This document shows, one piece after another, positions 1 through 29,029 of a stretch of DNA of 64,000 bases. A program made the translations under genes and the position numbers. The notes below the pieces were generated by a model, which saw nothing but the letters and a program-made list of their open reading frames with translations, ran no database searches and was not told where the DNA came from. Positions within the stretch are counted from its first letter, which is position 1; the number at the start of each line of letters is the position of its first letter. Origin of the DNA: a virus; the IMG/VR virus record IMGVR_UViG_3300020045_008546, positions 1-64,000 of that record, one strand, 5' to 3'.

Positions 1-346
1 AAGAAATATTGTTATCGCAAGTATAGTAAGTATCATTCTAGTAGTTGTTTTAATGCCTCTACGTCATTCATATTCCTTACTATCAATCCAATCCCACCGT
101 TATTATTTAAGGCGTTTAAAATGTTCTTACCACTATATTTCAAATATAGAAGCTAATAGAGTTTCATTTGGAATTAAGAAAGCTAATTTAATACTTTCTA
201 AACTTGGTTTTGAGATTATTCATTTAGTTAAATTAAATAAAATAAGTGAAGAATAAAGTCATTATTTTAGCACTTTTATTGTTGTGTTTTTCAATTATTT
301 TTAGTATATTCATAAACGTTTTACCAATTATTAAACAACTAATCAG

Positions 347-2061
347 ATGAATTTTTATCTTCCAAATGACGAAAGAATTAATGTTAAACAAAGGGAGTTT
401 TTGATAGCACATAATGAGTTGCCAGAGTTTAGTTATAAGTTACAAGTAAAGTATTCAGTACTAGGTTTTAGCTTTTGGAGAACAGTAAACAAGGCGGTTG
501 ATAGTAGTAGTTTAACGCCTTCAATGAGTATTGGTAAGATGAAGGAACGATTAATGTTAGTATAGTGGGATGGCTTATATGTTATCCGGTGTTATTTATT
601 TTTTTATTATTTATAGGAAAAAGAAAGAATGAAAAAAATATTTGATTTAAGTAAATTAGTAAGTATTTCTATTAAAGGTAAAGTTAATACATGGGGATAT
701 TTTTATCATAAAAAATCAACTAACTGGTATGGAAAAGAAATTAAAGAAGGATTCTATTATTATGGAGAATTCCAAGGTAGTTCAGTAGAAATAGTTTCCA
801 ATAACAACAAATTAATGGTTGAGGATAATGTACTTTACTATAAACCTAGTGTTACATTAAAGTTTGTTGATGGTTCAGAGACTGTTAAATACTTCCAAAA
901 CTTTGCAATGGCTAATAAATTTGGTCACGAATTAGCTAGTAAACATTTCACATCTAAACTTGAAATAAAAGAATGAGATCATATTTTTTCTTTCACAACG
1001 AATTTGAATTATTATCACATCTTGAAGATGAAGATGGTTTTATTGAAATAGATGTTCCTTTCGAATTATTGGCACACATGCAATTAGATGATATGGTTAC
1101 TAAGAAATTAGAAGGCTATACTGGCGAAGAAATAGAATTACATCTATTGGTTAATTCGAGAATGTTTGACTTCGTTAAAGACGAATTTTCGATACAATGT
1201 CAAATTGGTACACCCATAGAAGAAGGAGGAAGTAACTTAGGGTTTGGTCAATCTTTGAATTGATATGAATTTAGAATATAACATCGAAACATTAAAGGCG
1301 TTAAAAGAGCTTAAAAATAACTGGAATGGAGGAGATAGCGAACCTATACCACATAAATTTATTGATATAGCACTAGATCATATATCAAAGTTATTAATTC
1401 AACCAAAAGTTACGCCTTATGATAACGGTATTTGTTTTGAATGGGCGACTGGAAGCGACAATCTAATTCAAGTCAATATCTCAGACAATATTGAGTATAT
1501 AGTTTCAATCGAGCAAGATTTGGTCTACGATCAAATAATTGAATCTAAATTTATCGGGCAGTACGTGAATCGGATATTAAAGCAAGAACTTAAAAATACG
1601 CCTTACTGATGTTAATTAACTCAAAAATAAATATAGGCGATTCAGAGTTATTTTTTTTAATCAGTAAGGATATAAGCTGGTTTCATGATAATTGTAAAAC
1701 TCCTGATATATTGAAACTACTCCAAGTCCGAGATCATCTTGCCACTTGCTCATACAATTTAGCAAGTATTTGCGCTGATTTTAAAAGTAATTATAATACT
1801 AACTATTACATTCGTAAGATTGAAACAGCGCGTAAAAAACAAGGTTTAATTAATTCGGGGAAAAGTGCCGCACAAAGCGAAACGGATAGTATAGTAGCTA
1901 TGTCAGATCATTTTAAAAACGAATTAGAAGCAGAAGCTAATAGTTATAAAGTAGATTTACTTTTAAAGCAAGTTAACAAGATTTTAGACGCAATGAATCA
2001 AAGAATAGCTTTTGCAAGATCAGAAGAATATACGGCTAGGAAACAAGAAAATAATGTTTAG
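347..2061 (+). CDS. Block of five small hypothetical genes (347-565, 629-976, 973-1263, 1265-1609, 1609-2061)
   Basis: Closely packed or overlapping ORFs; the last is helical and coiled-coil-like; no family recognised with confidence. Confidence 0.7.
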
Positions 2062-2063
2062 TA

Positions 2064-2095
2064 TTTGGTAATTAAAAAAATTAATTGTACATTTG
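2064..2095 (+). promoter_or_regulatory. Bacteroidota sigma-A type promoter of the tRNA operon
   Basis: TTTG (2064-2067), 20-nt spacer, TACATTTG (2088-2095), matching the -33 TTTG / -7 TAnnTTTG consensus. Confidence 0.8.
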
Positions 2096-2099
2096 AATT

Positions 2100-2168
2100 A
2101 TGAAAACAACAAATTTATATAGCTATCTCTTTTGCTCGTGGAGTCGTAAGATTTTCCAAGTGGAATAG
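2100..2168 (+). CDS. Putative attenuator leader peptide MKTTNLYSYLFCSWSRKIFQVE (22 aa; not in ORF track)
   Basis: ATG 2100 to TAG 2168; codons 6-15 are TTA TAT AGC TAT CTC TTT TGC TCG TGG AGT, matching the amino acids of the downstream tRNAs; overlaps alternative hairpins. Confidence 0.85.
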   Translation: MKTTNLYSYLFCSWSRKIFQVE

Positions 2169-2191
2169 CTATATCAAATTTAAAAAGATAT

Positions 2192-2229
2192 AAACTCAAC
2201 TTGGTATAAAATCCGGGTTGAGTTTTTTT
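2192..2229 (+). terminator. Intrinsic terminator (attenuator) immediately 5' of the tRNA array
   Basis: Stem AAACTCAACTTGG / CCGGGTTGAGTTT (two G-U pairs) with T7 tract 2223-2229; tRNA-Phe starts at 2232. Confidence 0.85.
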
Positions 2230-2231
2230 AT

Positions 2232-2307
2232 GGAATTATAACTCAGTTGGTAGAGTGTCAGATTGAAGATCTGATGGTCATTGGTTCAAGTCCAATTAAT
2301 TCCACCA
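2232..2307 (+). tRNA. tRNA-Phe(GAA)
   Basis: Cloverleaf GGAATTA...TAATTCC-A-CCA; anticodon arm TCAGA TT GAA GA TCTGA; T loop TTCAAGT. Confidence 0.95.
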
Positions 2308-2315
2308 ATAAATAC

Positions 2316-2386
2316 GCATGAATCGTTCAATGGTAGGACGGCAGACTCCAAATCTGTTCATAGAGGTTCGAATCCTTTTTCGTGTG
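2316..2386 (+). tRNA. tRNA-Trp(CCA)
   Basis: GCATGAA...TTCGTGT-G; anticodon arm GCAGA CT CCA AA TCTGT; T loop TTCGAAT. Confidence 0.9.
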
Positions 2387-2392
2387 CGAAAT

Positions 2393-2466
2393 GGCTTTGT
2401 AGCCCAAATGGTAGAGGCAATAGACTTAGGATCTATTTAGTGAGAGTTCGAATCTCTCCAAAGTTA
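2393..2466 (+). tRNA. tRNA-Leu(TAG), short variable loop
   Basis: GGCTTTG...CAAAGTT-A; anticodon arm ATAGA CT TAG GA TCTAT; T arm GAGAG TTCGAAT CTCTC. Confidence 0.88.
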
Positions 2467-2473
2467 CAAGTAT

Positions 2474-2546
2474 AGCTCAATAGTCCAAAGGCAGAGACAT
2501 CGGTCTTAAACACCGTACAGTATGGGTTCGAGTCCCATTTGAGCCA
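2474..2546 (+). tRNA. tRNA-Leu(TAA), short variable loop
   Basis: AGCTCAA...TTGAGCC-A; anticodon arm TCGGT CT TAA AC ACCGT; T arm ATGGG TTCGAGT CCCAT. Confidence 0.85.
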
Positions 2547-2553
2547 CTAAAAT

Positions 2554-2638
2554 AGATGGATGCAGCCGTGGTGGTAATCTAGTATTGAAAACTAGCGCAG
2601 TCAGAAATGACGGGGTTCGAATCCTAATTCATCTGCCA
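2554..2638 (+). tRNA. tRNA-Ser(TGA), atypical D and T arms
   Basis: AGATGGA...TTCATCT-G-CCA; anticodon arm CTAGT AT TGA AA ACTAG; long variable arm GTCA GAAA TGAC. Confidence 0.75.
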
Positions 2639-2646
2639 ATTTAAAT

Positions 2647-2731
2647 TGAGAAGTGCCGGAGTGGTTGATCGGGACGCACTGCTAACGCGTTGATCAGAAA
2701 TGATCCAAGAGTTCGAATCTCTTTTTCTCAA
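2647..2731 (+). tRNA. tRNA-Ser(GCT)
   Basis: TGAGAAG...TTTCTCA-A; anticodon loop CT GCT AA; long variable arm GATCA GAAA TGATC. Confidence 0.9.
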
Positions 2732-2737
2732 CAAAAT

Positions 2738-2809
2738 GATAGTATGGCCGAGTGGACAAGGCATCCGATTGCAAACCGGACAACGTTGGTTCGAATCCGA
2801 CTATTATCT
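2738..2809 (+). tRNA. tRNA-Cys(GCA)
   Basis: GATAGTA...TATTATC-T (U73 discriminator typical of Cys); anticodon loop TT GCA AA. Confidence 0.92.
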
Positions 2810-2818
2810 CAATTATAT

Positions 2819-2902
2819 TCCAAGGTCGCTCAGCAGGAAACGGCGCAAAACTGTAAATTTTGTAATCCGCATGGATTGGGAGTTCGAGTCTCTCTCTTGG
2901 AA
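2819..2902 (+). tRNA. tRNA-Tyr(GTA)
   Basis: TCCAAGG...TCTTGGA-A; anticodon arm CAAAA CT GTA AA TTTTG; long variable arm AATCC GCAT GGATT. Confidence 0.9.
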
Positions 2903-2980
2903 CTATTTTTATTTTAAGCTATCTTAGCGATTTAACCCACTTCTAATATACTTCAAAAGGTGGTCAATTAGCTCCAAAAT

Positions 2981-3015
2981 AAAAAACCATGATAGATTAT
3001 ACTGTCATGGTTTTT
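2981..3015. terminator. Bidirectional intrinsic terminator between tRNA array and endolysin
   Basis: AAAAAACCATGATAG...CTGTCATGGTTTTT inverted repeat between convergent units. Confidence 0.8.
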
Positions 3016-3066
3016 GCAATACATACAACTAAACAAAATGAATGAAACGCGTCAAACAAATTATAT

Positions 3067-3705
3067 CTATAATACTTTTATGATCTTATTATATAGATCA
3101 GTTCTTTCAGCTAAGTGCGAATTCCCTCCGTTAATCTTACGAGTAGCACCTTTAATATCTTGCTTATCTGCAAACAAATTTAGTTTATTTTTACGCCAAT
3201 AAAAAGCACCTGCATAAAGGCTATTTTTAGGCTCTATAACAGCATCAGGATACTTAACAAAGTCATTGGATAAGAATACACCTAAATTATCAGTAAAGTC
3301 TCTATAATTAGATTTTCCGGTCAATTGAATCGTTCCTCTTCCAATATATTTCCAACCATCTCGTGATTCAAAATTTCCATTCCCGTTTTTATTTTCATAA
3401 GATGTACTAGCAATTAATTCTGGTTTTTTTTGAATAGATATTGCTAATTTATTGGGAACTTTAATCTTAGATAATGGATTAACGGCATATAACTTAGGCC
3501 AAGTATTAGCTAAGCCTTGCGCTGAATACATTAAATTTTCAACGAACTTTGTATAATATTGTGACTCAACACCAGTCTGAGCAAAGAATTGAGCTAAACG
3601 CCTTTCATTAGTTAATTCACAATACTCAACTACCTCAGAAAAATATGGGTCGAACTGCCCTATTTTAGAACCTTTAAAGATTTGTTTTATTTCGTTCGGT
3701 ATCAT
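3067..3705 (-). CDS. Endolysin, glycoside hydrolase family 19
   Basis: Motifs RLAQFFAQTGVES, ENLMYS, DGWKYIGRGTIQLTGKSNY, TRKINGG; likely start MIPNEIK at 3705 rather than 3891. Confidence 0.9.
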   Translation of the reverse strand: MIPNEIKQIFKGSKIGQFDPYFSEVVEYCELTNERRLAQFFAQTGVESQYYTKFVENLMYSAQGLANTWPKLYAVNPLSKIKVPNKLAISIQKKPELIASTSYENKNGNGNFESRDGWKYIGRGTIQLTGKSNYRDFTDNLGVFLSNDFVKYPDAVIEPKNSLYAGAFYWRKNKLNLFADKQDIKGATRKINGGNSHLAERTDLYNKIIKVL

Positions 3706-3707
3706 AA

Positions 3708-5519
3708 TCAATAAATTTCTGTACCAGATACATATGTCAAAACAGTTGATCCACTTGTAGAACCAACAATGCGGCAAAGAGCACCCGCTGGAATAGTAGC
3801 CGATAAGCAAGCCGTTTGAGCTGTTACTGAATTTAAAACAACTGCTAAGGTAACAGTATTTGAGTTCATTAACGTTCCTGCATTTATCCAAGTGGAACCG
3901 CCATTAGTTGAATACTGTAAAACAACTGAACCAGAAGATGCGCCCCCAATAGTAGCAGTACAAGTAATCGTAATATAATAATTAACATCAGCTTGCAATG
4001 TTGCAGAAGGTGTAAACGTAGTACTATTAATAGGTCTTGTTACAGCGTTAATAGTAGGCGTATATCTTCCCGGAATATTTAAAACACCAGTAGAGTTATT
4101 ATAAGTAGCAGCGGTTAAATCATTTCCTGTTGTTGTTAAACTTAGTGCAAGTCTAGCCTTTGTATCTGTGTATCCATCGGTAATGCCATAACCTGACATT
4201 GTAGTTGGTTTACCTGTAAGACTAGAAAATGATTGAGCCGGAACAGACGATATATAACCTGACGGATTACTTGAACTATACCCATCCGTAATTCCGTATC
4301 CCGATAATGTTGTAGGCTTACCCGTCAAGCTACTAAAAGTTTGATTTGGGACACTTGAAATGAAGTTAGCTCCGTTGGTAAGCTGATTTGTATTGCTAGG
4401 GATAGAAGGCTTATTTAATATTTGTCCTAATCCACTAGAAGCATTCCAATCAGCATTAATTTGAGCACTAGGTATACTTGGAAGTCCTATAAGGTCTGAA
4501 TAATTACCTGTAATAGAAACAGTACTAAGGGTTGGTTTCCCCGTTATTGATGCCCATGACTGAGCCGGAATAGAACTGATATAATTATTTGGGTTGCTTG
4601 CTAAATAGTAAACAGATAAATTCGGTTTATTTAGTATTTGCGACAGTCCAGAAGAGCTATTCCAGTCAGTGTTAACAGGTGAACTAGGTATAGTAGGAGT
4701 CCCGGTTAAATCGCTATATAAGCCACTTGTGGCGACTGTTGCAAATGTAGGCTTACCAGTTATAGATGAATAGCTTTGAGCAGGCACAGAGCTTAAATAA
4801 TTAGCGTCATTTGCGAATGCAGAAACATTACTTGGAATAGTCGGGATAGTTGGTTTCCCTGATAGATCAGAATATAATCCAGAATTAGCAACAGTAGAAA
4901 AAATAGGCTTACCCGAAACAGACAACCAAGTAGGAATATAATTAACTGATTTCCATTTTCCTGTTGTGTCAGATATTGCTAACCTTTTATTAATTCGATT
5001 AGACAAACTAACAGTATCTGGAATTACAGGTTTATTTAGTATTTGTGATGTGCCTGAATTGGAATTCCAATCCGAATTTACTTGTGATATTATTGTAGGC
5101 TTATTGGATAAATCATTATAACTACCTGACGTTGCAACCGAGCTAAATGTAGGTTTGCTAGTTACATTAATCCAAGATGGAACCCAGTTTATTGAACGCC
5201 AATGGTTACTAGTATCTGACTTAGATAACTTGGAATTGATAACCGTTTTCATAGATGCAATAGAATCACTAGCAACAGATATTTTCATATAAGGCGCATT
5301 ATTATGAACCAAGCTATCGTGCATCCATTTCATTTGAAACGCCCTTATTTTAATTGAATCTTGCTTAGCTACATAAATCCTATTGCCCGTACCTAACCAT
5401 AAAAAATTACTTACAGTTGTGTCTTTTGGGATAGCTTGCGTTGAAAGTAATGTTGCCGCTTGTCCGAATACTACATTGGATACGAAAATCAATGCAATAG
5501 TAAAAAATAAACTTTTCAT
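3708..5519 (-). CDS. Fibre-like repeat protein with N-terminal signal peptide
   Basis: Many (W/F/Y)xSITGKPT, SGxYSDL, DWNxSSG and TTLSGYGITD repeats typical of tail fibres; N-terminus MKSLFFTIALIFVSNVVFG-Q. Confidence 0.7.
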   Translation of the reverse strand: MKSLFFTIALIFVSNVVFGQAATLLSTQAIPKDTTVSNFLWLGTGNRIYVAKQDSIKIRAFQMKWMHDSLVHNNAPYMKISVASDSIASMKTVINSKLSKSDTSNHWRSINWVPSWINVTSKPTFSSVATSGSYNDLSNKPTIISQVNSDWNSNSGTSQILNKPVIPDTVSLSNRINKRLAISDTTGKWKSVNYIPTWLSVSGKPIFSTVANSGLYSDLSGKPTIPTIPSNVSAFANDANYLSSVPAQSYSSITGKPTFATVATSGLYSDLTGTPTIPSSPVNTDWNSSSGLSQILNKPNLSVYYLASNPNNYISSIPAQSWASITGKPTLSTVSITGNYSDLIGLPSIPSAQINADWNASSGLGQILNKPSIPSNTNQLTNGANFISSVPNQTFSSLTGKPTTLSGYGITDGYSSSNPSGYISSVPAQSFSSLTGKPTTMSGYGITDGYTDTKARLALSLTTTGNDLTAATYNNSTGVLNIPGRYTPTINAVTRPINSTTFTPSATLQADVNYYITITCTATIGGASSGSVVLQYSTNGGSTWINAGTLMNSNTVTLAVVLNSVTAQTACLSATIPAGALCRIVGSTSGSTVLTYVSGTEIY

Positions 5520-5572
5520 GAGTACTGATATTTGAGTTAGTTAATTTTCTCGTGTATCAGTGGGTTATTTCA

Positions 5573-6745
5573 TTAAGATCCTTTTACGATCCAATACATT
5601 CCATTATGAATAATTTCACTATTTTCACCTGTCATTAATGTCATAGTATTAGCTAACGCGCCAGATATATAAAAATCATTTGAACCACTAAAACTATTAA
5701 TAGTAACAGTTCCTACACCTGTATTAAGTAATGTTAAGGCTAATCCCCCATTACCAGTTAAAGTTGGCATAGTCCAAATAGATGAAGTAGAGCCAGTGTA
5801 TGTATAAACTCTATTTGTGCTAGTTAATGACAAGGTACTAGCAGAAGATATTGTTGTTTTTAATTTGATACTAGTAGAAAATACAACTAGACCATTAAAA
5901 GTAGTCGTTCCATTAAGTGTTTTATCACCTAAAATAGTTTGATTTGTCGTTAAATCTGCATAACTTGTATTAGTCGGGATAGCAGGAAATGTTACCCATT
6001 GTTTAAGACCGTTCCAGTACTGACCACTCGATCCACTAGTAATAGTCGGTTCTTGTATAACATTAAGTACATTCCCTAACCCAACTTTTGATTTAGTTAA
6101 TGTTAACCAACTTGGATCTGTATAACTACCTGATAATTGAACGCCTGTTGATGTTGTCAAGGCATCCGTTATACCGTAACCATTAACTGTTGTAGGCTTA
6201 GAAGTTATTGATGCAAATGAATGGGAGTGAAGAATAGGCGCATAATAAGTATCAGCACTAGCTTTTGTTAATCCATTAGATGTGATATAAGGCATTAAGT
6301 CTGTTTGATCTGTAATATCGCCTTCTATAAAACCCCAAGTACTGGCAGGATTTAATTCAGCATTGATATTAACTATTGTTTCATCACCTATAACAACTTG
6401 ATTAGTTATATCTTGATAATTACCCGGTTTATTAGTAGTAACACAATCACAAGCGATAATACTAGCACTACCATCTAAAATATATATAACAAAAGGATTT
6501 TTAAGTAGCTTTAACTTATCCGAAGAAAATACAATAGAAAGTAACTGACCATTAAAAGATAATACAGGTTGTATATCATCGCCAGTAATTACACTATTAT
6601 CTAATTTCTTATTTAACCTAACAGAAATATTAGACACATCGAAAGTATCGGGAAATGAAAATTTAATCGATATATTATTATCGACAAATAATTCTATTTT
6701 CCCTCCGTATGACGGCTTGTTTGATATAATACTTTCTGTGTTCAT
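5573..6745 (-). CDS. Tail fibre / appendage protein
   Basis: WGFIEGDITDQTDL, HSHSFASITSKPTTVNGYGITDA and KSKVGLGNV fibre motifs; shared N-terminal domain. Confidence 0.7.
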   Translation of the reverse strand: MNTESIISNKPSYGGKIELFVDNNISIKFSFPDTFDVSNISVRLNKKLDNSVITGDDIQPVLSFNGQLLSIVFSSDKLKLLKNPFVIYILDGSASIIACDCVTTNKPGNYQDITNQVVIGDETIVNINAELNPASTWGFIEGDITDQTDLMPYITSNGLTKASADTYYAPILHSHSFASITSKPTTVNGYGITDALTTSTGVQLSGSYTDPSWLTLTKSKVGLGNVLNVIQEPTITSGSSGQYWNGLKQWVTFPAIPTNTSYADLTTNQTILGDKTLNGTTTFNGLVVFSTSIKLKTTISSASTLSLTSTNRVYTYTGSTSSIWTMPTLTGNGGLALTLLNTGVGTVTINSFSGSNDFYISGALANTMTLMTGENSEIIHNGMYWIVKGS

Positions 6746-6766
6746 TGTGTCATGTTAATTAATATT

Positions 6767-6808
6767 TTTTGTTTTTCCCTAAGAGGAAGGGTGAGGGATA
6801 GGTGGGTT
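6767..6808. repeat. 42-bp direct repeat, copy 1
   Basis: TTTTGTTTTTCCCTAAGAGGAAGGGTGAGGGATAGGTGGGTT identical to 39945-39986. Confidence 0.95.
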
Positions 6809-6818
6809 GCCTCAGCGG

Positions 6819-8099
6819 TTATGTAATTTCATTAATCACTGTCAAATCCTTTTTAAATTGAGAATAAAAAGGAAGTGTTTTTATGTAATTATATAATCCG
6901 GTTTTCATTAATGCGTGCCCATACCCACCCGGATGTAATCTACTTCCTAACACTCTTTCCGCATTAGTAAAATTTAAATCAGCTGTTGCGGTAGCATTAA
7001 GCGCAAACGTTGTACTTAAATCAAAATAAGACAACTTCATAGCGGGATAAGGTTTATTGTTATTAGCAATGTCACTTAAAACAGCACGGTAATTTGGCAG
7101 TGTTGATCTTGCAGCAACATCTGTTACTGGGTCGCCTAATAAAATAAACTGTGCATCAGGATTTAATCTGTATAAATATTTCAGAATTGCCATGTAATTA
7201 GCTCTAAATGTATTTATATCTAATGCCAACCCTGCATCATTGGTGCTTGCTTGAATGGTACAAAAATCAAATTTTATAAAGTCGTATCTATGAGATAAAA
7301 CTTGTTCTAAAATTGCAGTGGATGTACTGCCCCCAAATCCATGATTAATATATCTAATATCAATACCATCATTCCTAAGCTGATTTTTAAGCCTTGCATT
7401 GTAATAACTATCACCCTTAAAAAGGATATTAGTGGTAACTTCATTTCCTAACCTTGACCAACCAATCGAATTTGATATAGATAAATAAGTATATCTGGCA
7501 TTCAGCTCTAATGATGATGTTATATACTCAATTGCTGCAACTAAGCTAACATTACAGGCCGTTGCAGATGTTTGAGTTACGGTTAAATTTATATAACCGT
7601 TTTCAAATATCACAGTATCTATTGGGATGTTAACTATTGCATCTTTCCCGTCAATAAGTGTCCTTGTCATTGTAAGAACTTCTGGATCATGATCACCCGG
7701 AATTGATGATTTCCTCATGGTCACCGTTGCTGTACATCCGCCTCCGTTATTAATTAACGACAGCGACTTCAATAACCCAATCTTACCCATAACTACTCTA
7801 ATCTCCCCTGAACTTACTTGATTCAAGGTTGTTGTAGCTACTGCAATATGGGAAGTACCATAAACTCCCTCCGAGGCTGCTATATCTTTTATTCTGGTAT
7901 AGATATTACCAATTCTCCCCCCTTCCTTCAACCCATTAGAGGCATTAGCGCCGTCTGTAACAGATGTTCTAAAAGAATCAAAATAAGATTGTGCTGCACT
8001 AATAATTACACTACCACCATTTTTTATAATAGTGGATGCGTTAAAAGCATTTGTTAACTTAGTAAAAAATGATGTTACTCCATCTATCTTTAATGCCAT
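6819..8099 (-). CDS. Appendage protein with C-terminal SGNH/GDSL esterase domain
   Basis: SGNH-like blocks ISNSIG, NHGFGGSTS, ASTND, RLHPGGYGH. Confidence 0.75.
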   Translation of the reverse strand: MALKIDGVTSFFTKLTNAFNASTIIKNGGSVIISAAQSYFDSFRTSVTDGANASNGLKEGGRIGNIYTRIKDIAASEGVYGTSHIAVATTTLNQVSSGEIRVVMGKIGLLKSLSLINNGGGCTATVTMRKSSIPGDHDPEVLTMTRTLIDGKDAIVNIPIDTVIFENGYINLTVTQTSATACNVSLVAAIEYITSSLELNARYTYLSISNSIGWSRLGNEVTTNILFKGDSYYNARLKNQLRNDGIDIRYINHGFGGSTSTAILEQVLSHRYDFIKFDFCTIQASTNDAGLALDINTFRANYMAILKYLYRLNPDAQFILLGDPVTDVAARSTLPNYRAVLSDIANNNKPYPAMKLSYFDLSTTFALNATATADLNFTNAERVLGSRLHPGGYGHALMKTGLYNYIKTLPFYSQFKKDLTVINEIT

Positions 8100-14548: not shown

Positions 14549-15304
14549 ATGAAAGATGAATTAGGGGATAGAATGAAATCCCATTACGAAAGTAGAGCAA
14601 AAGTATTTTTACCAAGAAGGTCATATACATTGATTAGAGTTGACGGGAAAGCCTTTCATACTTACACTAAGGGATTGTCTAGTCCATTTGATGAGGCACT
14701 AATGGAAGACATGGATAATACAGCCGCTTATCTTTGTAAGAACATTATGAATGCTAAATTTGCCTTTGTTCAATCAGATGAAATTAGTATTTTAATCACA
14801 GACTTTGAAGATCAGAATACACAAAGTTGGTTTGATAATAACTTGCAAAAAATGTGTAGCGTATCCGCATCAATGGCAACATCTAAATTCAATCACCTAC
14901 GATTTGCAAGAAATTTTGGGTACATGGGATTAGAAGAAGTAGAAAAATTTAAATTAGCTGAATTTGATAGTAGAGTATTCCAAATACCACAGAAAACAGA
15001 AGTTGAAAATTATTTTATTTGGAGGCAACAAGACACTGTAAGAAATAGTATTCAATCCACTGGTCAATCACTTTATTCTGCGAAAGAGTTGCACGGTAAA
15101 AATATGAGTGAATTGCAAGAGATGATTTTTCAAAAAGGCGTAAATTGGAATGACTTTGAGCCTAAATTTAAAAGAGGGCGTATGATAGTAAAAGAATCAT
15201 ATCAGAAAGAAGAATCTATTCGCACAAGATGGGTTTCAATTGAAGTTCCAATATTTACACAAGAAAGAAATTTTCTATCTGATAAAATAGGAGATAATAT
15301 TTAA
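14549..15304 (+). CDS. thg1: tRNA(His) guanylyltransferase / Thg1-like 3'-5' polymerase
   Basis: IRVDGKAFHTYT, FVQSDEISIL, FDSRVF, YFIWRQQD motifs. Confidence 0.95.
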   Translation: MKDELGDRMKSHYESRAKVFLPRRSYTLIRVDGKAFHTYTKGLSSPFDEALMEDMDNTAAYLCKNIMNAKFAFVQSDEISILITDFEDQNTQSWFDNNLQKMCSVSASMATSKFNHLRFARNFGYMGLEEVEKFKLAEFDSRVFQIPQKTEVENYFIWRQQDTVRNSIQSTGQSLYSAKELHGKNMSELQEMIFQKGVNWNDFEPKFKRGRMIVKESYQKEESIRTRWVSIEVPIFTQERNFLSDKIGDNI

Positions 15305-24100: not shown

Positions 24101-25942
24101 TGGATAAGCAATACCATCGATTGGATCATCATTGCCACCTATCTTTCTTTTCCAAGCATATGTAAGATTATCGGTAAATGTTAAGGTCATATAGCCCGTC
24201 ATTACCCGGTTAGTTAATCTTACCTGTTCCGGCGTGAATATATTTAGCTTATCAGAAACAATAGAAGTGTAGTCTACTTCGTTTGCATTCCTAATAGGAA
24301 TATCAGCATCAACTATATAACTATGTTCACCTTCGTAAGCCGTTTCAGTAGTTACAGCAATAGAAATATCTTCTAATACAAGTAAAGGTGCTCTTTCAAG
24401 TTCATCCCCTAATAGCGTAGACTGATCATAAACAGTAGCAGGAAATATTCTGAAATAAATTTTACAAATAGCGTGCGGAATCCCATCAACATCACGTTTT
24501 AAATAATCGGTGATTGTATCGCTATTAATTTCAAAAGTCTGTATAGGCAATTCATTAGCAGGCGTCAATAAATTAGGCTCTACATTAACATTACCTTTTA
24601 TGATTATACCATGTCTATTCTTTAATTTTTTCTCTGGATTCCATTTGCCTGTTTCATCAAGCCAAGAAATAGTATCTTTTTCATTGTCATTAGTATAACA
24701 TTCCATATAAAGGCCATTAACGCCCCTTACGCGGTAAGCTCCACTAATTACAATTTTAACTTTTTGACCTTTATTAAATAACCCGGCATCTATTATAATT
24801 GGATCAGAAATATCAATATGATTCTGCTCACTATTCCCTGAATCAATTTGTTTCCCATTTGATGTAACCGCGCCTCTAATTTCAAATTTGTAAGGATCGT
24901 CAACCCTGCCAGTACCCGTCCTTTGCCATCCGGCAGGCTCTAATGGATCATCCGAAATTTGTTGTAAAGTATCTAAGTTAATATCCCATCCCCTTAAATT
25001 TCCTCCAAGTATAGGATAGGCAAATTGACCATTAAGCAATCGGTTAACAGCAATACCGGGACTAATCTGTGATTTTACAACAGAAGATGTATCTGCTATA
25101 CTACTGGTAACATTTTCAGTAGGTATTAAGTTAGGTATATCATTATCAAATGGTGTTCTACCTATACTTACCGCCTGATTAACTACATCGGCACTTTTAA
25201 ATACACCTTGAAAATCATATATTCTTCTATTGGTGGATAGAGCATTTAATTCGGGGATACCTTTAACTACCCAAATATCACCTTCTTGTACAACAAAGGC
25301 GTTAAAAGCATTTAATATGCCAGATAAGGCATCATAGCAAGTTACACCTCGCAATCCGTCAGGATCAACTTCTGCAAGAGCTAATGGGTCTCCACTAGCC
25401 ATTTGAATATCATACAAATCTACATAAGTATGAAAATCTAATTCTAACCCAGCAAATTGTAAACATTGTCCAATAGCATCCTTAATACTAGCTTTCCCTA
25501 ATACAAATTCACCATTATCAGAAGTAAATGTATAATCATGAAGAAAAAACAATCCACACCCCGCAGACATTTGAACATGATACGGCTTAGATTGAAATGG
25601 TTCTTTACAATCAACCGTAACTAAATACCCTGTAAAATAATTTACTAAAACATCACCTTCTTTTATCTCATATAGATATACCTTATATTTTTGGTCATCA
25701 TCAATGAATAAATCTTTAATTTCAAAATCATTTCCTTCCTCAGCAACCCATTCTATTGTAGCTTTTTTAGTTCGAATAGGAGAGTAAATATTATCTAGTT
25801 CAGTAACTTCAATAACAAAAGGATTTCCACTAGATTTAACTTCTATTGAATCACCCGAATAATCTCTTTGATGTATCTCAACTCTATAACCTATCTCTTG
25901 GTCATCTGCAAATTCAGAAAAGTATTTTAAACCGTATGCCAT
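18155..25942 (-). CDS. Giant tail tip / fibre protein (2595 aa)
   Basis: Directly after tape measure; C-terminal half has fibre repeats (TTNLxEGTNKYFTExRV x3, HATTKxYVD, HTHSLSQIT) and terminal GFLLPRM module. Confidence 0.8.
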   Translation of the reverse strand: MAYGLKYFSEFADDQEIGYRVEIHQRDYSGDSIEVKSSGNPFVIEVTELDNIYSPIRTKKATIEWVAEEGNDFEIKDLFIDDDQKYKVYLYEIKEGDVLVNYFTGYLVTVDCKEPFQSKPYHVQMSAGCGLFFLHDYTFTSDNGEFVLGKASIKDAIGQCLQFAGLELDFHTYVDLYDIQMASGDPLALAEVDPDGLRGVTCYDALSGILNAFNAFVVQEGDIWVVKGIPELNALSTNRRIYDFQGVFKSADVVNQAVSIGRTPFDNDIPNLIPTENVTSSIADTSSVVKSQISPGIAVNRLLNGQFAYPILGGNLRGWDINLDTLQQISDDPLEPAGWQRTGTGRVDDPYKFEIRGAVTSNGKQIDSGNSEQNHIDISDPIIIDAGLFNKGQKVKIVISGAYRVRGVNGLYMECYTNDNEKDTISWLDETGKWNPEKKLKNRHGIIIKGNVNVEPNLLTPANELPIQTFEINSDTITDYLKRDVDGIPHAICKIYFRIFPATVYDQSTLLGDELERAPLLVLEDISIAVTTETAYEGEHSYIVDADIPIRNANEVDYTSIVSDKLNIFTPEQVRLTNRVMTGYMTLTFTDNLTYAWKRKIGGNDDPIDGIAYPIQYKTLKERLRQLCGKRIIIEGDFLGYDLKASNSIFLQYDDAYNSDKFYTVTGWKWDIINRRYTVKINELSLEKLTSEQEYVELDKSGSGSRGNRLYGNASGGSTSGGGGNTISIDPIELDIIDPIYFTVNKQSVQIFDLGSYIISGHLPEELTTKIVYYPTWMNPIYEDRGVDGDILIYSANGTPRFKGHDQIVIELTGLEEETYLAVIPIVIQDPVTNVSQIIDGTTLDILGTVPGFFPVPALLNFRTKINGTHDKVVVSISGGGASGDSRTQTKTFGPFESTVDIGNYLFFELDDGEYFEVGVYDYTVEVYRGTFQTSLEKGKFTLYDEEYLTKASNELYDTSKDELLGVIDIEGDNTFKSVPSFDIKTIIADLEHDKISFVLNKDGVEVFSVEYESDPAITDKEYNLFDSVVASYGAGKYDLTYTISLLGADVYQRNASFEFTEADVLPEAGVDLITFKANTINYSVVDSLPLFNYQADLPDNWGLKIPVPSVDYDFVEWKLYDSTTGGLAEVDVETYTNLPQFISYEDGSTKKDILVFELKNSTDIDSIHRAPSSFRLKALFKLGGISGKVVAIKQADFAFRVPLEPDDYSGTRFLNVDGSTITVIDSNMPKTGTKYILPTNGLYSVSAREYNGELFDSVKVKYSKFVDDAYVVLHYFGADYVVQWNSPSGTDVVETPSDDTAYLIGIAGGDGLRYLNSSGGNVIIDEVGQYKASFEFSKDGVLIGTKTTEFELIDGSEPPVIPVKDCCGGEGTTLPVYPDVVGTWGTKSKTVRETLTENGTISAIEEIDIEPLNMELLGDTWYFDDAPKVYLEGTDLNNLATYGQVLNALASGRGDKQPVKTVATSSVSLSGLQTINGYTLLSGDRVLVTAQSPATENGCYVASSGSWIRASDSDTGTELLGATYLVTEGSLTTNQTKWKVTNSPPITVGTTAITIIQVQGAEIDPTVPTWVKAITSTQISNWDLAYTGYTNFNSMFDTRFGTKTTTNLVEGTNKYFTEQRVRDTPLTGLVTTSSVALSATDTIIVSLGKLQAQIVSNNTRWNGLPSEDTDINLIREGGVKTWSGSAINSPYGPGGTSLTFVGNTANGNGNSNSSWINQILAGTDAELSWRQSVNDWNTWTATYKIWTTKHFSATNVSNWNTAYGWGNHALAGYMLSSDFNGLFDTRLSSKTTNNLTEGTTNKYFTEARVLATVLTGFTVGANSSILATDTVLSAFGKTQGQINGLTASIATKENAFSKGNLVAGSNITLSGTLTNRLVGGGDITITGLANSLTGTGTVGRLSKFGTSSTLVDSILEETSGRVNALGIISGQTVESNAAPSNGNVNGLTLSNAGSVRWVVGKFGLESGTNSGSDLYFSRLSDSGGFLGNTIVVVRATGAATFESTVSVGTPTSNSHATTKIYVDNLVNGYVLSSNFNSLFDARLATKSTTNLTEGSNLYFTVARVLATALTGFSVGANSTISVTDTILGAFGKTQGQINALVTSVATKENSFSKGNIIAGTGISITGTLTSRLVGTGDITISSTTTGIGGSGTVNTIPLFATSSSIADSILSQSGGYVNSSGGLSAQVLQSNASPSSSGVVGFIFSSSGSQRWNFGKNGLETGSNVGSDLYMSRFNDAGAYVGNSFMISRATGETTFYLPLTIQTPTSSAHATTKAYVDGLIGGKESAFSKGNLIAGSKITFSGSGSNRLVNSGDLTISLTTLTIYDITDLPGILNAKAETSVTNDLQSQINGKANVSHTHSLSQITNADDVNAIENLTGTGVLKRLGTNSWSVGAISISDVDSLTGTLNSKADVSVTNSLQSQINGKMPIDRTITINGNTQSINNNPSFTISSSGGTITGSGTTNVLAKWTGSGSIGDSRIYDAGSGTISMTADFSAYNISASGNLSASSALKVGSGSLNPAAILHLDANNRGFLLPRMSETQMQNISSPPVGLVVFVDSGSGLGLWCYYGSSYGWRIMATRLWVGASSGGSAP

Positions 25943-25958
25943 TTTATATCGCCTCTAC

Positions 25959-28253
25959 CTATCTGAACTTATTATTTTTCTTTTCGCCTATGTTAACCGC
26001 AACCGCTAAATCTCCACTCCTAATATTTGCAGTCAATTGTCCGACAAAACCATTATCACGTCCCGAATTTCCGAAATTTCTATTGAAATTCCTACCCGTA
26101 TTTGTGCCATTGATCAATCCAAACATATTTGACTGTTGACGCTTGTTTAAAACTAGCTCCCCTGCCGTTAATCTAGCGGGTATTTTATCTGTTCCTGCCG
26201 GGCCTTGAACTAATCCACCAGTATATAATCCCTGACCATCGGCATCATTTATCTTAGTTTTAAGATATGCACCGGCAGCAACAGCAGCAATACCCGCAGC
26301 TAATGCAACAAATGGATTTTCAATACTTGTTTCTGCCGCAATCATTAAAGCCGCAAACGTTATCAAGGCCTTACCAATATCTTGAAGCATTTTAGCTAAA
26401 AGCAAACCAAATTGTTTCCCTGCATCTTCAAATCCAGAGCCACCCGCTAGTGCCGATCCGACCATTTCCCCAAATCCAAATGCCAAGTCAGATGCGGCTT
26501 GTCTAAGGGCATTATTAATATTAGTAGATAAGTCTTGTATTGCTTGTAAGTCTTGTAAGTCTTTCAGGGATTTTTTAAAATCCTCTCCTCCTTTTTGAGA
26601 AGCTCCTACAAAATCACCAAATCCAGCTTCTGTTGCGGATTGCAAACTACCAAAATGAGATATAAGATTAGTTTCAATTTCCTTTTGAACAGCATCAGTA
26701 CTATCTCTTAATTGAAACCAATTATCATTCCAATCTTTTTGCTCTTGCGTTAATTGTTCAATAGGCAATATTGGTCTATTTATTTTAGTAGACTTTCCAT
26801 CACCAGTAACTCCTTTTGCAAATTCTTCCCCTATTTTATCAAAACTATTTTTATCTAATATTGTTGATAATCCGTTTTTACTTTGCTCACCTATAACATC
26901 TTGAATCGTGCCATTGTATTTTCGATACGCCTCATTAATAGCTATCTCTGAATCAGATATTTTTATTTCAAGTGCTTGTGCTGCATTTTTTTTATCTTCT
27001 GCATCTAACTTTTTTTGAAGTGCGGCTTTTTGTCTAGCAGCCTTCTCCATCGCTTTTTTTTCTTTTTCAGCAATAGCTTCTATTGTTGGAACATCACCAA
27101 CTATATCAGGTAGTTTTCCAATAGTTCCACTAGCACCACTTAGTAATGATCCAGCGACACCCGACTTATCTCTACTAGGAAAAGGGTATTTAGACCCTAG
27201 TGGAACTGGCTTATTCTTTAAAGCATCGGCTTGTTTTTGACTTGCAAAGTTTGTGGCAGCCCCGGTAAGACCAAGTTTAGAAAATAAAGTATCAATACCA
27301 GTATTATTAAATAATGTCTGGAAAGTAGATTCCATTAAACCTAATAACGCAGCCCCTGCACCTACTTCTGTATTTAAAATTCTTAATTGCTTAATCAATG
27401 CACCAGCATCATCAGCAGCTTGACTAAAAAATCCTGTTAATCCAGTTCCCTTAGCTAATTCAGCTACAAATAAAGTTAATTGCCCGTTAGCGTATTCAAT
27501 ATTACTACCTAAACTATGCGCTCCTTCAATTGCATCGGTGCCGAATGTATTTAAAAGTTCATCAGACATTCTAGGTAAAAGATCAGAAGCTAAAACTTCT
27601 CCTTTTTGAAGCATAGTATTAAGCTCTGCCGTAGTTTTACCCATAGCACGTGCCGCAATATTGAACGCACCAAATAATCTTTCGCCCAATTGTCCACGCA
27701 ATTCTTCAGCTTGAACGGTTCCTTTCGATACCATCTGAATGAATGCCCTGAAAGTTCCATTCGTGTCATCCGTTGACATTTTAAGGGCAGCAGAAGCAAC
27801 CGTAACAGCTTTAAATAATTTTTCTGTTTCAGCCCCCTCTAAATTTGTTCCTTTGGTAGCAATTGTTAATTGGGCGAAACTTGCACCAAGATCAACAACA
27901 TTTTTCTTATATGTACTAGCCAGATCTTCAAGGAAAGACATATTCTTTCCAAATTGTTCTTGCCCACCGGATGCAGTTTTTAATTGGGTTTCAAATTTCT
28001 GAACTTGAAGTGTAGCATCTAATATATATTTACCCGCAGATAAAGCAGCTTGAAAAGTTAAATAACCAGCGGCCAATTTACCAACAGAACTAGTTAAACT
28101 AGAATTGGCGTTATCTAATTTTTTAGTAGAAGTAGATGCCTTTTCTGTTGCAGGTGTTAATTCTCCTAAACTAGATTTAAGTTTGCCAATTTGAGATTCA
28201 AGGTCTTTTGTATCGCCTTTAAATCGTATTATTAATTCTGGTTCCGCAGCCAT
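25959..28253 (-). CDS. Tape measure protein
   Basis: AFIQMVSKGTVQAEELRGQLGE tape-measure motif; Ala-rich helical; synteny. Confidence 0.92.
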   Translation of the reverse strand: MAAEPELIIRFKGDTKDLESQIGKLKSSLGELTPATEKASTSTKKLDNANSSLTSSVGKLAAGYLTFQAALSAGKYILDATLQVQKFETQLKTASGGQEQFGKNMSFLEDLASTYKKNVVDLGASFAQLTIATKGTNLEGAETEKLFKAVTVASAALKMSTDDTNGTFRAFIQMVSKGTVQAEELRGQLGERLFGAFNIAARAMGKTTAELNTMLQKGEVLASDLLPRMSDELLNTFGTDAIEGAHSLGSNIEYANGQLTLFVAELAKGTGLTGFFSQAADDAGALIKQLRILNTEVGAGAALLGLMESTFQTLFNNTGIDTLFSKLGLTGAATNFASQKQADALKNKPVPLGSKYPFPSRDKSGVAGSLLSGASGTIGKLPDIVGDVPTIEAIAEKEKKAMEKAARQKAALQKKLDAEDKKNAAQALEIKISDSEIAINEAYRKYNGTIQDVIGEQSKNGLSTILDKNSFDKIGEEFAKGVTGDGKSTKINRPILPIEQLTQEQKDWNDNWFQLRDSTDAVQKEIETNLISHFGSLQSATEAGFGDFVGASQKGGEDFKKSLKDLQDLQAIQDLSTNINNALRQAASDLAFGFGEMVGSALAGGSGFEDAGKQFGLLLAKMLQDIGKALITFAALMIAAETSIENPFVALAAGIAAVAAGAYLKTKINDADGQGLYTGGLVQGPAGTDKIPARLTAGELVLNKRQQSNMFGLINGTNTGRNFNRNFGNSGRDNGFVGQLTANIRSGDLAVAVNIGEKKNNKFR

Positions 28254-28259
28254 ACGCCT

Positions 28260-28562
28260 CTATCTTTTTGAAAATTTAACCTTATCTCTATCAGGATTGA
28301 AATACTGTTTCATTTCCTGTTCGGCTTTAACGTGTTCCTTTATTTTTAATAACTTCTCTTCACTTGGGAAAGTCATTAATTCTATTTCGCTTTTACTTTT
28401 CCCTTTTGGTGCGTTTATATTGTACAAAAGGCTATAAATGCTTCGGGTATGTCGCCATTTTTCTTCCCATCGCATATTATAGCCTTCTATTAGTGCCGTT
28501 AATTCAAACAGCGTTATGTCGCAATACTCTTGATAATTAAGGTTCAAATGGCCATGAGCCAT
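28260..28562 (-). CDS. Tail assembly chaperone, -1 frameshift (gpT-like) part
   Basis: In the -1 frame of the upstream ORF via A AAA AAG at 28595-28589; lies just before tape measure. Confidence 0.8.
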   Translation of the reverse strand: MAHGHLNLNYQEYCDITLFELTALIEGYNMRWEEKWRHTRSIYSLLYNINAPKGKSKSEIELMTFPSEEKLLKIKEHVKAEQEMKQYFNPDRDKVKFSKR

Positions 28563-28576
28563 TCCCCTTAAACTAT

Positions 28577-29029
28577 CTAAGTCAAATTCTTTTTTTTTAC
28601 TTCCTTGGATTTTTCTGTCTTTTCTTCATCTATTTCTTTTGGTAAAGTGCCACCATTTAAAATAGCCCTAGAAAAAGTAGATATAATTTGTGTCCCTTCT
28701 TTCGAGGTTAACCCAAGTTCAGGAAGCCAATCATCATACACAGTATCTAGCGAATAAAAGTTAATGCCTTTACCGTCCCTTTCGGCTACATAATTAGCAC
28801 CAGACCAAATTGATATAGCTAAAAACTTAATCAATTCAGTAGGCATAATAGCTATTGATTCCTGATTAGTATTAGGATCAGTGAAAGTTGTCATTTCAAA
28901 TAATGAAGGCAAATCTTTCAATTTAACCCCATACTCATTCATGAAAAACTCTAACGCCCTCAATCCGTACTTAACAGGAATAACTTCACCGTTAATATTT
29001 AATTCTGTATATCCGACTAATTTATTCAT
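28577..29029 (-). CDS. Tail assembly chaperone (gpG-like)
   Basis: Between tail tube and tape measure; ends in slippery GTA AAA AAA AAG. Confidence 0.8.
   Translation of the reverse strand: MNKLVGYTELNINGEVIPVKYGLRALEFFMNEYGVKLKDLPSLFEMTTFTDPNTNQESIAIMPTELIKFLAISIWSGANYVAERDGKGINFYSLDTVYDDWLPELGLTSKEGTQIISTFSRAILNGGTLPKEIDEEKTEKSKEVKKKNLT

Follow-up and report, generated by a model that had tools for sequence, protein, structure and literature searches.

Why do a 22-codon open reading frame (ORF) and an intrinsic terminator stand between a promoter and an array of phage transfer RNA (tRNA) genes? This arrangement lies between positions 2064 and 2903 of the window, by which we mean the whole 64,000-nucleotide (nt) stretch analysed here (positions 1 to 64,000 of IMG/VR virus record IMGVR_UViG_3300020045_008546). 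Phage tRNA genes are usually viewed as constitutive cargo, serving either to match codon usage or to replace tRNAs cut by host defences. An earlier note on this DNA, made by reading its letters, proposed that the ORF is the leader of an attenuator which gates the array in response to a loss of tRNAs. The attenuator part of that proposal, with host tRNA loss as one possible trigger, is supported by codon-matched leaders in other phages and by antiterminators that co-vary with their terminators, and we consider it very likely that a ribosome-mediated leader-peptide transcription attenuator controls this phage tRNA operon. Leader translation, ribosome stalling and regulated readthrough are what we infer from the sequence elements described below.

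A promoter, a leader ORF and a terminator precede the tRNA array

The promoter of the unit occupies positions 2064-2095; it lies on the plus strand, as do the leader, the terminator and the tRNA genes described below. Its -33 element, TTTG (2064-2067), and its -7 element, TAcaTTTG (2088-2095), were both read from the sequence; they are separated by a 20-nt spacer and match the Bacteroidota -33/-7 consensus TTTG/TANNTTTG (PMC6847099). Promoters of this Bacteroidota type lie outside the coverage of the sigma-70 promoter scan. Because the Flavobacterium -7 box occupies -12 to -5, with transcription starting 4-5 nt downstream of it (PMC6847099, PMC9723704), position 2100 is the predicted +1. The leader ORF (2100-2168), which consists of 22 codons followed by a TAG at 2166-2168 and encodes the peptide MKTTNLYSYLFCSWSRKIFQVE, has its ATG at this same position, only 4 nt past the -7 box. 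A leaderless mRNA beginning with AUG is therefore predicted, so that the regulated transcript would open with a usable start codon. A second, identical copy of the promoter cassette (TACATTTGAATTATG) is found outside the window at G000:90330-90373 (L002 1501-1544). It precedes, ATG included, an ORF of 88 amino acids (aa; MVQEAIDLYRSLGK...) that starts at G000:90371, and suggests that the phage also makes leaderless mRNAs for ordinary genes.

The intrinsic terminator (2192-2229), which comprises segments 3 and 4 of the putative attenuator, has a stem of 13 base pairs (2192-2225) with an 8-nt loop and a T tract, and a folding energy of -16.6 kcal/mol. It lies between the leader and the genes to be regulated, and the promoter in turn sits between the upstream gene and the terminator. 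By sequence, ORF and terminator calls we confirmed that each of these elements is where the earlier note had placed it.

As the note had also said, the array starts 2 nt past the T tract. Its genes encode tRNA-Phe (GAA; 2232-2307), tRNA-Trp (CCA; 2316-2387), tRNA-Leu (UAG; 2393-2467), tRNA-Leu (UAA; 2474-2547), tRNA-Ser (UGA; 2554-2638), tRNA-Ser (GCU; 2647-2732), tRNA-Cys (GCA; 2738-2810) and tRNA-Tyr (GUA; 2819-2903). Seven of the eight that had been claimed are firm: Phe, Trp, Leu-UAG, Leu-UAA, Ser-GCU, Cys and Tyr were called by ARAGORN at default settings and also by Rfam (74 bits for Phe), with an alignment as further support for Cys. The Ser-UGA gene is a weaker call, made by ARAGORN at a relaxed threshold only and scoring 22 bits in the Rfam tRNA clan; a soil contig that covers Ser-Cys-Tyr carries the same Ser-UGA 3' end. 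These are the only tRNA genes in the 95-kb virus record.

The leader codons call for the tRNAs of the array

Codons 6-15 of the leader (2115-2144) read TTA TAT AGC TAT CTC TTT TGC TCG TGG AGT and specify only Leu, Tyr, Ser, Phe, Cys and Trp. This ten-codon run, which is just as the earlier note had described it, constitutes the putative sensor and falls within segment 1, which forms the 5' side of the 1:2 hairpin. Nine of the ten codons are read under strict wobble rules by a tRNA of the array, and all eight tRNAs are sampled; both TTA and CTC fall within the run, and the array holds two tRNA-Leu genes.

To estimate how often such a run arises by chance, we collected 1137 control short ORFs from six-frame translations of the window phage, two complete relatives and the array-bearing loci. 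A run of at least ten in-set codons occurred in 4 of the 1137, and among stop-free 10-codon windows in the six frames of the genome the frequency of windows wholly in-set was 2.6e-4. The six amino acids account for 27% of the long ORFs of the phage; T-rich codons specify them, and the genome has 31.7% GC. By itself, the evidence from the window is no more than suggestive.

Units of the same build occur in other phages

At least 12 further units composed of promoter, ATG, leader, terminator and tRNA array were found, some of them in two Flavobacteriia phages that are in culture and the rest in IMG/VR contigs. They belong to Tenacibaculum phage Gundel_1 (two), Maribacter phage Panino (three), L109/L142, L143, L177, L192, L195 (two in tandem) and L255/L238 (two scored, a third unit with a GTG start being left out of the count). 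Gundel_1 was met through a tRNA-Phe match and Panino through a promoter match; the IMG/VR units came from pattern scans and are those among the matches listed. The -7 promoter cassette, through the ATG, recurs ahead of the leaders of Panino, Gundel_1 and the IMG/VR contigs. The distance from -7 box to ATG is exactly 4 nt in 10 of the 13 units, homologous ORFs starting with MKT occupy the same position in 10 of the 12 further units, and the first tRNA begins 2-8 nt past the T tract where this was measured.

One Gundel_1 unit consists of TAtgTTTG, 4 nt, the ATG, the peptide MKTKLYSYSCFSSWFKNRAG and a terminator, and 2 nt past that terminator follow tRNAs Tyr-like, Trp, Phe, Ser, Cys and Ser. The second Gundel_1 leader, MKTNNLHIQQNNLP..., is followed by Pro, Gln, a tRNA with a CAU anticodon, Asn and Leu. 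Panino carries MKTKGNTFSWFNYSNCSDCNC... ahead of Tyr, Ser, Ser, Asn, Trp, Phe and Cys, the leader segment that precedes a Tyr-Ser-Ser-Asn-Trp-Phe-Cys array being FNSFWSYSNCSSCNC. Another Panino leader, MKTQRLHQELEQPTN..., stands before Pro, Glu, Gln, His, Leu, Leu and Arg; here ten consecutive codons, QRLHQELEQP, specify the six amino acids that the seven tRNAs carry and no others. The third, MRAATGIAIIGRTKDK..., precedes Ala, Lys, Ile and Gly and, past an inserted gene, Asp, Thr, Val and Met, and leaders rich in Ala, Gly, Ile and Lys precede Ala-Lys-Ile-Gly arrays. Rfam confirmed the Cys tRNAs of L109 and L195, those of Panino and L255 were called by relaxed ARAGORN and alignment only (GCA loop, paired acceptor stems), and the Tyr-like and Trp genes of Gundel_1 score 26-28 bits, just below the Rfam cut-off.

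The tRNA blocks of these phages are roughly sorted by first codon letter (window 2232-2903; L138, which is Panino 24300-28800; L017; L195 6839-8133; L255). A UNN block holds Phe, Tyr, Cys, Trp and Ser, sometimes with Leu-UAA or Asn; a CNN block holds Pro, Gln, His, Leu and Arg together with Glu; and an ANN/GNN block holds Ala, Lys, Ile, Gly, Asp, Thr, Val and Met. Every block comes with a leader of its own. In the window only the UNN-type block is present, with Leu-UAG and Ser-GCU added.

Leaders match their own arrays

The earlier note had proposed codon-matched leaders at homologous arrays as a test, and this comparison, when run, favoured its reading: 11 of the 12 further leaders matched their own array, and the array of the twelfth, L177, is eroded. 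In a matrix of all leaders against all arrays, the longest in-set run was 9-15 codons against the leader's own array in most cases and 0-3 against arrays of other classes, so that three array classes go with three distinct leader vocabularies. For most leaders the observed run was reached by 0-4 of the 1137 control ORFs. The second unit of Gundel_1 (17 of 1137) and the C-type leader of L255 (16 of 1137) are weaker, and the L192 leader has a run of 2 against the strict set.

The match was also scored at the level of anticodons, omitting L177, whose eroded array yielded only Phe. A tRNA of the same array reads 89 of 103 sensor codons by strict wobble, or 100 of 103 if U34 is allowed to read all four, and every tRNA of every counted array is sampled by its leader. 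Smaller shifts follow the arrays as well. Asn codons appear in U-type leaders only where the same array has tRNA-Asn (Panino, L109, L195 and L255); in Gundel_1 the tRNA-Asn belongs to the other array, whose leader holds four Asn codons; and L192 has neither a tRNA-Glu nor a Glu codon in its leader. Run length and sampling in the window, and co-variation with array content over the 13 units, show regulatory codons enriched for what the operon supplies. We read the class differences and the Asn, Glu and Leu shifts as separate changes in the same direction, not as 13 independent events, and we take this cross-phage comparison as the decisive evidence for the proposed attenuator.

Alternative RNA structures in the window and in the other units

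The region 2096-2235 folds with a minimum free energy (MFE) of -37.7 kcal/mol (z = -5.9), which none of 200 shuffled sequences equalled. The fold consists of the terminator and the 1:2 hairpin that the earlier note had drawn (2111-2181; -19.2 kcal/mol by folding), an anti-antiterminator that overlaps the regulatory codons. Segment 2 (2155-2165; UCCAAGUGGAA), the in-ORF complement of the terminator 5' arm, ends 1 nt before the stop codon, and its duplex with that arm reaches -8.3 kcal/mol, where shuffles average -4.1 (p = 0.024). When the transcript is folded up to the terminator loop with a mask over the sensor codons, the MFE fold is the 2:3 pairing that had been claimed (2156-2164 with 2196-2204, plus TATATC/GATATA; -9.7 kcal/mol), and 9 of the 13 nt of the terminator 5' arm are sequestered. 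In these constrained folds, with complementarity above that of shuffles, masking the sensor thus gives an antiterminator that would exclude the terminator. A ribosome mask at the stop codon (masking 52-82) restored the terminator, and the stop codon of the window is thus positioned for a terminating ribosome to block segment 2.

The other units preserve this relationship with different letters. In each of them the 3' part of the ORF holds the complement of its own terminator 5' arm and changes with the terminator: the pairs are CCAAGU/ACUUGG in the window, AGCAGGA/UCCUGCU in Gundel_1, GCAAGAC/GUCUUGC in L195, and GGAGG-type with CCUCC-type in the others. This complementarity exceeded that of 1000 dinucleotide shuffles of the ORF 3' part at p < 0.06 in 9 of 12 units, with a Fisher combined p of 3e-9, although combined values overstate independence because leaders within a class are homologous. 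With the sensor masked and the transcript ending at the terminator loop, the antiterminator was the MFE structure in all 12 units folded, sequestering 6-12 nt of the arm. With no mask, the window and four other units form the 1:2 hairpin and leave the arm free. Separately, we noted that the Panino-type U leaders (L017 2577-2603, L109 and L177) share a stretch, ...YSNCS(D/S/N)CNCGGT..., which is conserved in nucleotides too and includes GCGGAGG, the complement of the terminator arm.

Proposed mechanism

In the mechanism we propose, transcription would start at or beside the A of the ATG at 2100 to give a leaderless mRNA, and a ribosome would translate the 22-codon leader, whose codons 6-15 would demand exactly the tRNAs encoded downstream. 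When decoding is fast, the ribosome would reach the TAG and cover segment 2 (2155-2165), allowing the terminator at 2192-2229 to form. When no ribosome is present, segment 1 would pair with segment 2 and the terminator would again form. In both cases transcription would end with an RNA of ~130 nt. If any tRNA of the array is scarce, the ribosome would stall in segment 1, segment 2 would pair with the terminator 5' arm before the 3' arm has been made, and RNA polymerase would read through the antiterminated site into Phe-Trp-Leu-Leu-Ser-Ser-Cys-Tyr. The new tRNAs would then relieve the stall, making tRNA supply demand-driven and self-limiting. Any shortfall in the capacity to decode the sensor codons would trigger such a circuit. 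Candidate causes of natural tRNA depletion are host anticodon nucleases, phage-induced host shut-off and the codon demand of late genes.

We also judge it likely that codon-matched leaderless attenuators are a general, modular control of phage tRNA operons, with one cassette per block and a vocabulary rewritten as tRNAs are gained, lost or moved. If so, each would act as a per-block homeostat of decoding capacity, and the leader would be a readable record of the tRNAs whose shortage the phage anticipates, such as a shortage caused by cleavage or degradation of host tRNAs.

Relatives of the window phage and a variant of its leader

Homologues of the 150-aa protein encoded upstream of the unit range from 85% to 57% identity. 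The closest relative, L009 (85% amino-acid identity), keeps the flanks and has an ORF of ~70 aa (L009 2037-2300) in place of window 2062-~2920; two complete relatives of 96 and 100 kb have no tRNAs at all. The promoter-leader-terminator-tRNA cassette is absent from these relatives and is therefore an accessory cassette, and the unit behaves as a mobile accessory module. Its right edge is marked by a hairpin at 2979-3017, identified from the sequence between the last tRNA gene and the endolysin gene that converges on it. The hairpin is probably a two-way terminator, and L009 retains it without the cassette.

A megablast search with positions 1-8000 gave no match among GenBank phages, where the best identity to the major capsid protein is 28%. 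Within IMG/VR, no match was returned by the exact tRNA-Phe word or by scans with the upstream protein alone and the capsid protein alone. Searching GenBank phages with the leader by blastn gave mostly chance or promoter-only matches; that in Cellulophaga phage phiST was rejected as lying within a gene and that in Tenacibaculum phage Larrie as covering only the promoter. Among the matches listed, broad pattern scans of IMG/VR mostly struck an unrelated regulator gene (MKTTLSERLKEARLARG...). The motif TTGTAYATTTG-N4-ATGAAAACA, seen at L029, L042, L045 and at least ~85 other loci among the matches listed, has no relation to tRNA leaders: its great frequency in Bacteroidota proviruses stems from its position at the head of a conserved gene that begins with MKTTLSERLKEARLARGLTQKALGD and resembles that of a DNA-binding regulator.

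A search of sequencing runs listed no RNA run that contains the stretch; two DNA runs with small shares yielded the soil contig mentioned above and a 176-nt groundwater contig over the leader. Relative to the window, the groundwater leader differs by four letters, of which three are listed, and lacks one base; its frame is open. Two changes, 2129 C>G (CTC>CTG) and 2138 G>A (TCG>TCA), are synonymous and lie inside the sensor run, and the resulting CTG and TCA codons fit the Leu-UAG and Ser-UGA anticodons better. The third, 2154 T>A, replaces Phe with Ile outside the run, and one A is deleted past the stop codon. All three structures are retained when this variant is folded; three substitutions are too few for a test.

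Weighing the attenuator against other explanations

Several observations weigh against an attenuator or narrow the form it could take. The sensor codons of the window alone give p ~0.004 for a run that the earlier reader picked after viewing the sequence, and the homology of leaders within a class, noted above for the combined p-values, limits the comparison between phages. Codon 5 (AAT, Asn) has no matching tRNA in the array. CTC, the one non-strict codon in the anticodon-level count, would have to be decoded by Leu-UAG through four-way wobble at U34 (superwobble), a caveat that the earlier note had itself raised and that our count bears out. The L192 leader contains Leu codons, yet only a tRNA-Leu-like remnant lies behind it. 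Leaderless mRNAs are a minority in Flavobacterium, ~5.5% (PMC9723704).

Further difficulties concern the structures. In the full-length window transcript the terminator wins over the antiterminator at equilibrium even when the sensor is masked, and we therefore do not propose a thermodynamic switch. Since the terminator (-16.6 kcal/mol) is more stable than the antiterminator (-9.7 kcal/mol), the trp leader is the model to follow: the switch would have to be kinetic, which depends on co-transcriptional kinetics and on a ribosome that keeps close to the polymerase. When the ribosome is given a realistic footprint, a stall at codons 14-15 allows the lower 1:2 stem to re-form behind it unless a second ribosome queues. 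The earlier note had described an OR gate in which a stall at any sensor codon suffices; since late stalls leave the lower stem free, such a gate may be uneven across codons. The Panino-type leaders have their segment 2 farther from the stop codon, 17-38 nt before it, so that a terminating ribosome would not cover it.

Could the ~130-nt transcript be the product, a structured RNA acting as a regulatory small RNA, a processing or stability element or a decoy, with the tRNAs made by constitutive leak and the ORF untranslated? The very stable fold (z = -5.9) and a promoter and terminator that delimit a discrete RNA are consistent with this, and attenuated leader RNAs of other bacteria are reported to act in trans (rnTrpL, PMC7968998), a role that could co-exist with attenuation. 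We nevertheless consider it improbable, as it gives no reason for the frame-specific match of triplets to tRNAs in three array classes, for an ATG conserved at +1 or for frames that stay open as far as segment 2 or beyond, and both groundwater changes inside the sensor run are synonymous. That the short ORFs encode functional micropeptides whose resemblance to the arrays is a by-product seems very improbable. It would account for the Cys/Gly-rich C-terminal motif conserved in Panino, L109 and L177 (...NCSxCNCGGT...), and two Panino leader ORFs are annotated as hypothetical proteins. Between classes, however, only the MKT start is conserved, together with the match in composition to the array, and the peptide sequence is not; the GCGGAGG conserved within the Cys motif complements the terminator arm, and the window peptide lacks the motif.

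A translational sensor could also be real and respond to something else, such as amino-acid starvation or ribosome availability or speed as an infection timer, or its stalls could lead to termination or cleavage. Any slowed decoding at the sensor codons, uncharged tRNA included, would give the same stall. We assign this a low probability, since a general sensor would have no need to sample all the tRNAs of the array behind it, or to vary from array to array in a single phage (Panino, L195, L255), and a sensor in segment 1 with the terminator complement in segment 2 has the polarity of trp, in which a stall gives readthrough. Pure coincidence would combine the terminator of the upstream gene, a chance ORF in an AT-rich spacer and T-rich codons that happen to match UNN-reading tRNAs. 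The four control ORFs that equal the window run, and an amino-acid set with T-rich codons that are common at 31.7% GC, are what such an account can call on. It is hardly credible in view of the 12 further units, which include CNN-type and Ala/Lys/Ile/Gly-type leaders whose codons are not T-rich; it also fails to explain the co-varying antiterminators, the promoter between the upstream gene and the terminator, and the closest relative, which keeps the upstream gene and lacks the whole cassette. These explanations fit the frame-specific, class-specific match much less well than does a leader-peptide attenuator.

Gene content and annotation of the tRNA loci

In several phages genes are inserted between leader or terminator and tRNAs, or within a block: HNH endonuclease genes in Gundel_1 (L015 3579-4085) and in L255 (reverse strand, ~4830-5310), and the gene for a 160-aa membrane protein in Panino (L138 2653-3135). 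In L192 (reverse strand, 3037-~3150), the tRNA-Arg is followed by a UAA (Leu) anticodon loop that lacks a full cloverleaf and then by a terminator; this is possibly a decayed tRNA-Leu whose leader still contains Leu codons. The window also carries a complete gene for a Thg1-like tRNA-His guanylyltransferase (14549-15304; phrog_4717, E = 1.4e-85), in a phage that has no tRNA-His gene.

The GenBank annotation of Gundel_1 omits the Tyr-like and Trp tRNAs directly past the terminator (L015 2848-2992), and the tRNA it labels 'undetermined' shows GCA (Cys) in its anticodon loop. A reverse-strand 'hypothetical protein' of Panino, CDS0106, covers a Cys-like tRNA, and CDS0063 and CDS0108 of this phage are probably leader peptides. 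Together with L015 2848-2992, the loci with annotation gaps are L017 3532-3603, L017 2532-2633 and L138 1007-1102. Corrections to the annotation follow for the Panino leader ORFs and for several unannotated tRNAs.

Comparison with known systems

If true, the attenuator would give phages a built-in gauge of decoding capacity that works codon by codon and lets them produce tRNAs as needed; in this feedback, what is regulated and what is sensed would be one and the same molecule. A textbook mechanism would thereby gain a new kind of target gene, and the leader sequence alone could predict which tRNAs share one transcription unit. Two of the carriers, Tenacibaculum phage Gundel_1 and Maribacter phage Panino, are cultured and have cultured hosts, so that the proposal is directly testable.

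The trpL, hisL, leuL, pheL, thrL and ilvGMEDA leaders are leader-peptide transcription attenuators of amino-acid operons. The window unit resembles the trpL, hisL, leuL and pheL leaders of E. coli and Salmonella in its short ORF of regulatory codons, its mutually exclusive 1:2, 2:3 and 3:4 hairpins, its terminator and a stall that would lead to readthrough, and it resembles the thrL and ilvGMEDA leaders in sampling several amino acids. Whereas the classic leaders regulate enzyme genes and repeat one codon, the window unit precedes tRNA genes and samples six amino acids and eight anticodons, mostly with one codon each. It is phage-borne, has a predicted leaderless mRNA and shows no sequence homology to them. 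Membership by descent in the trpL/hisL-type family was rejected, since the downstream genes are only tRNAs and no Rfam leader family matched; the likeness is functional only. The E. coli pheST attenuator, with its pheM leader, is a leader-peptide attenuator of a component of the decoding apparatus, and differs in that it is cellular, controls a synthetase gene and senses one amino acid. T-box riboswitches likewise respond to the state of a particular tRNA by switching between terminator and antiterminator, but they bind uncharged tRNA directly, use one specifier codon and involve no translation. A T-box is ruled out here: a cmscan of 1500-3500 at E up to 1 found neither a T-box nor any other cis-regulatory or leader family of Rfam.

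The host group appears to use leader-peptide attenuation for amino-acid operons (PMC9723704). In Flavobacterium psychrophilum, candidates for such attenuation were reported at amino-acid operons with sigma-A -7/-33 promoters; their targets are amino-acid biosynthesis genes, and tRNA genes are not mentioned (PMC9723704). Our literature search, with most subscription journals outside its reach, turned up no description in print of tRNA genes controlled by a leader peptide. The nearest system in print is the trn operon of Anabaena sp. PCC 7120, a long tRNA array induced under translational stress (PMC8421152, PMC10272220). It too is an accessory tRNA array that is silent until translation is impaired; it differs in that its control is reported to be by a protein repressor, TrcR, in place of a codon-matched leader peptide, and in that it resides on a cyanobacterial megaplasmid. 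The mechanism proposed for the window unit is a known one, and what is new is its tRNA target, its multivalent design with one codon per tRNA and its leaderless start.

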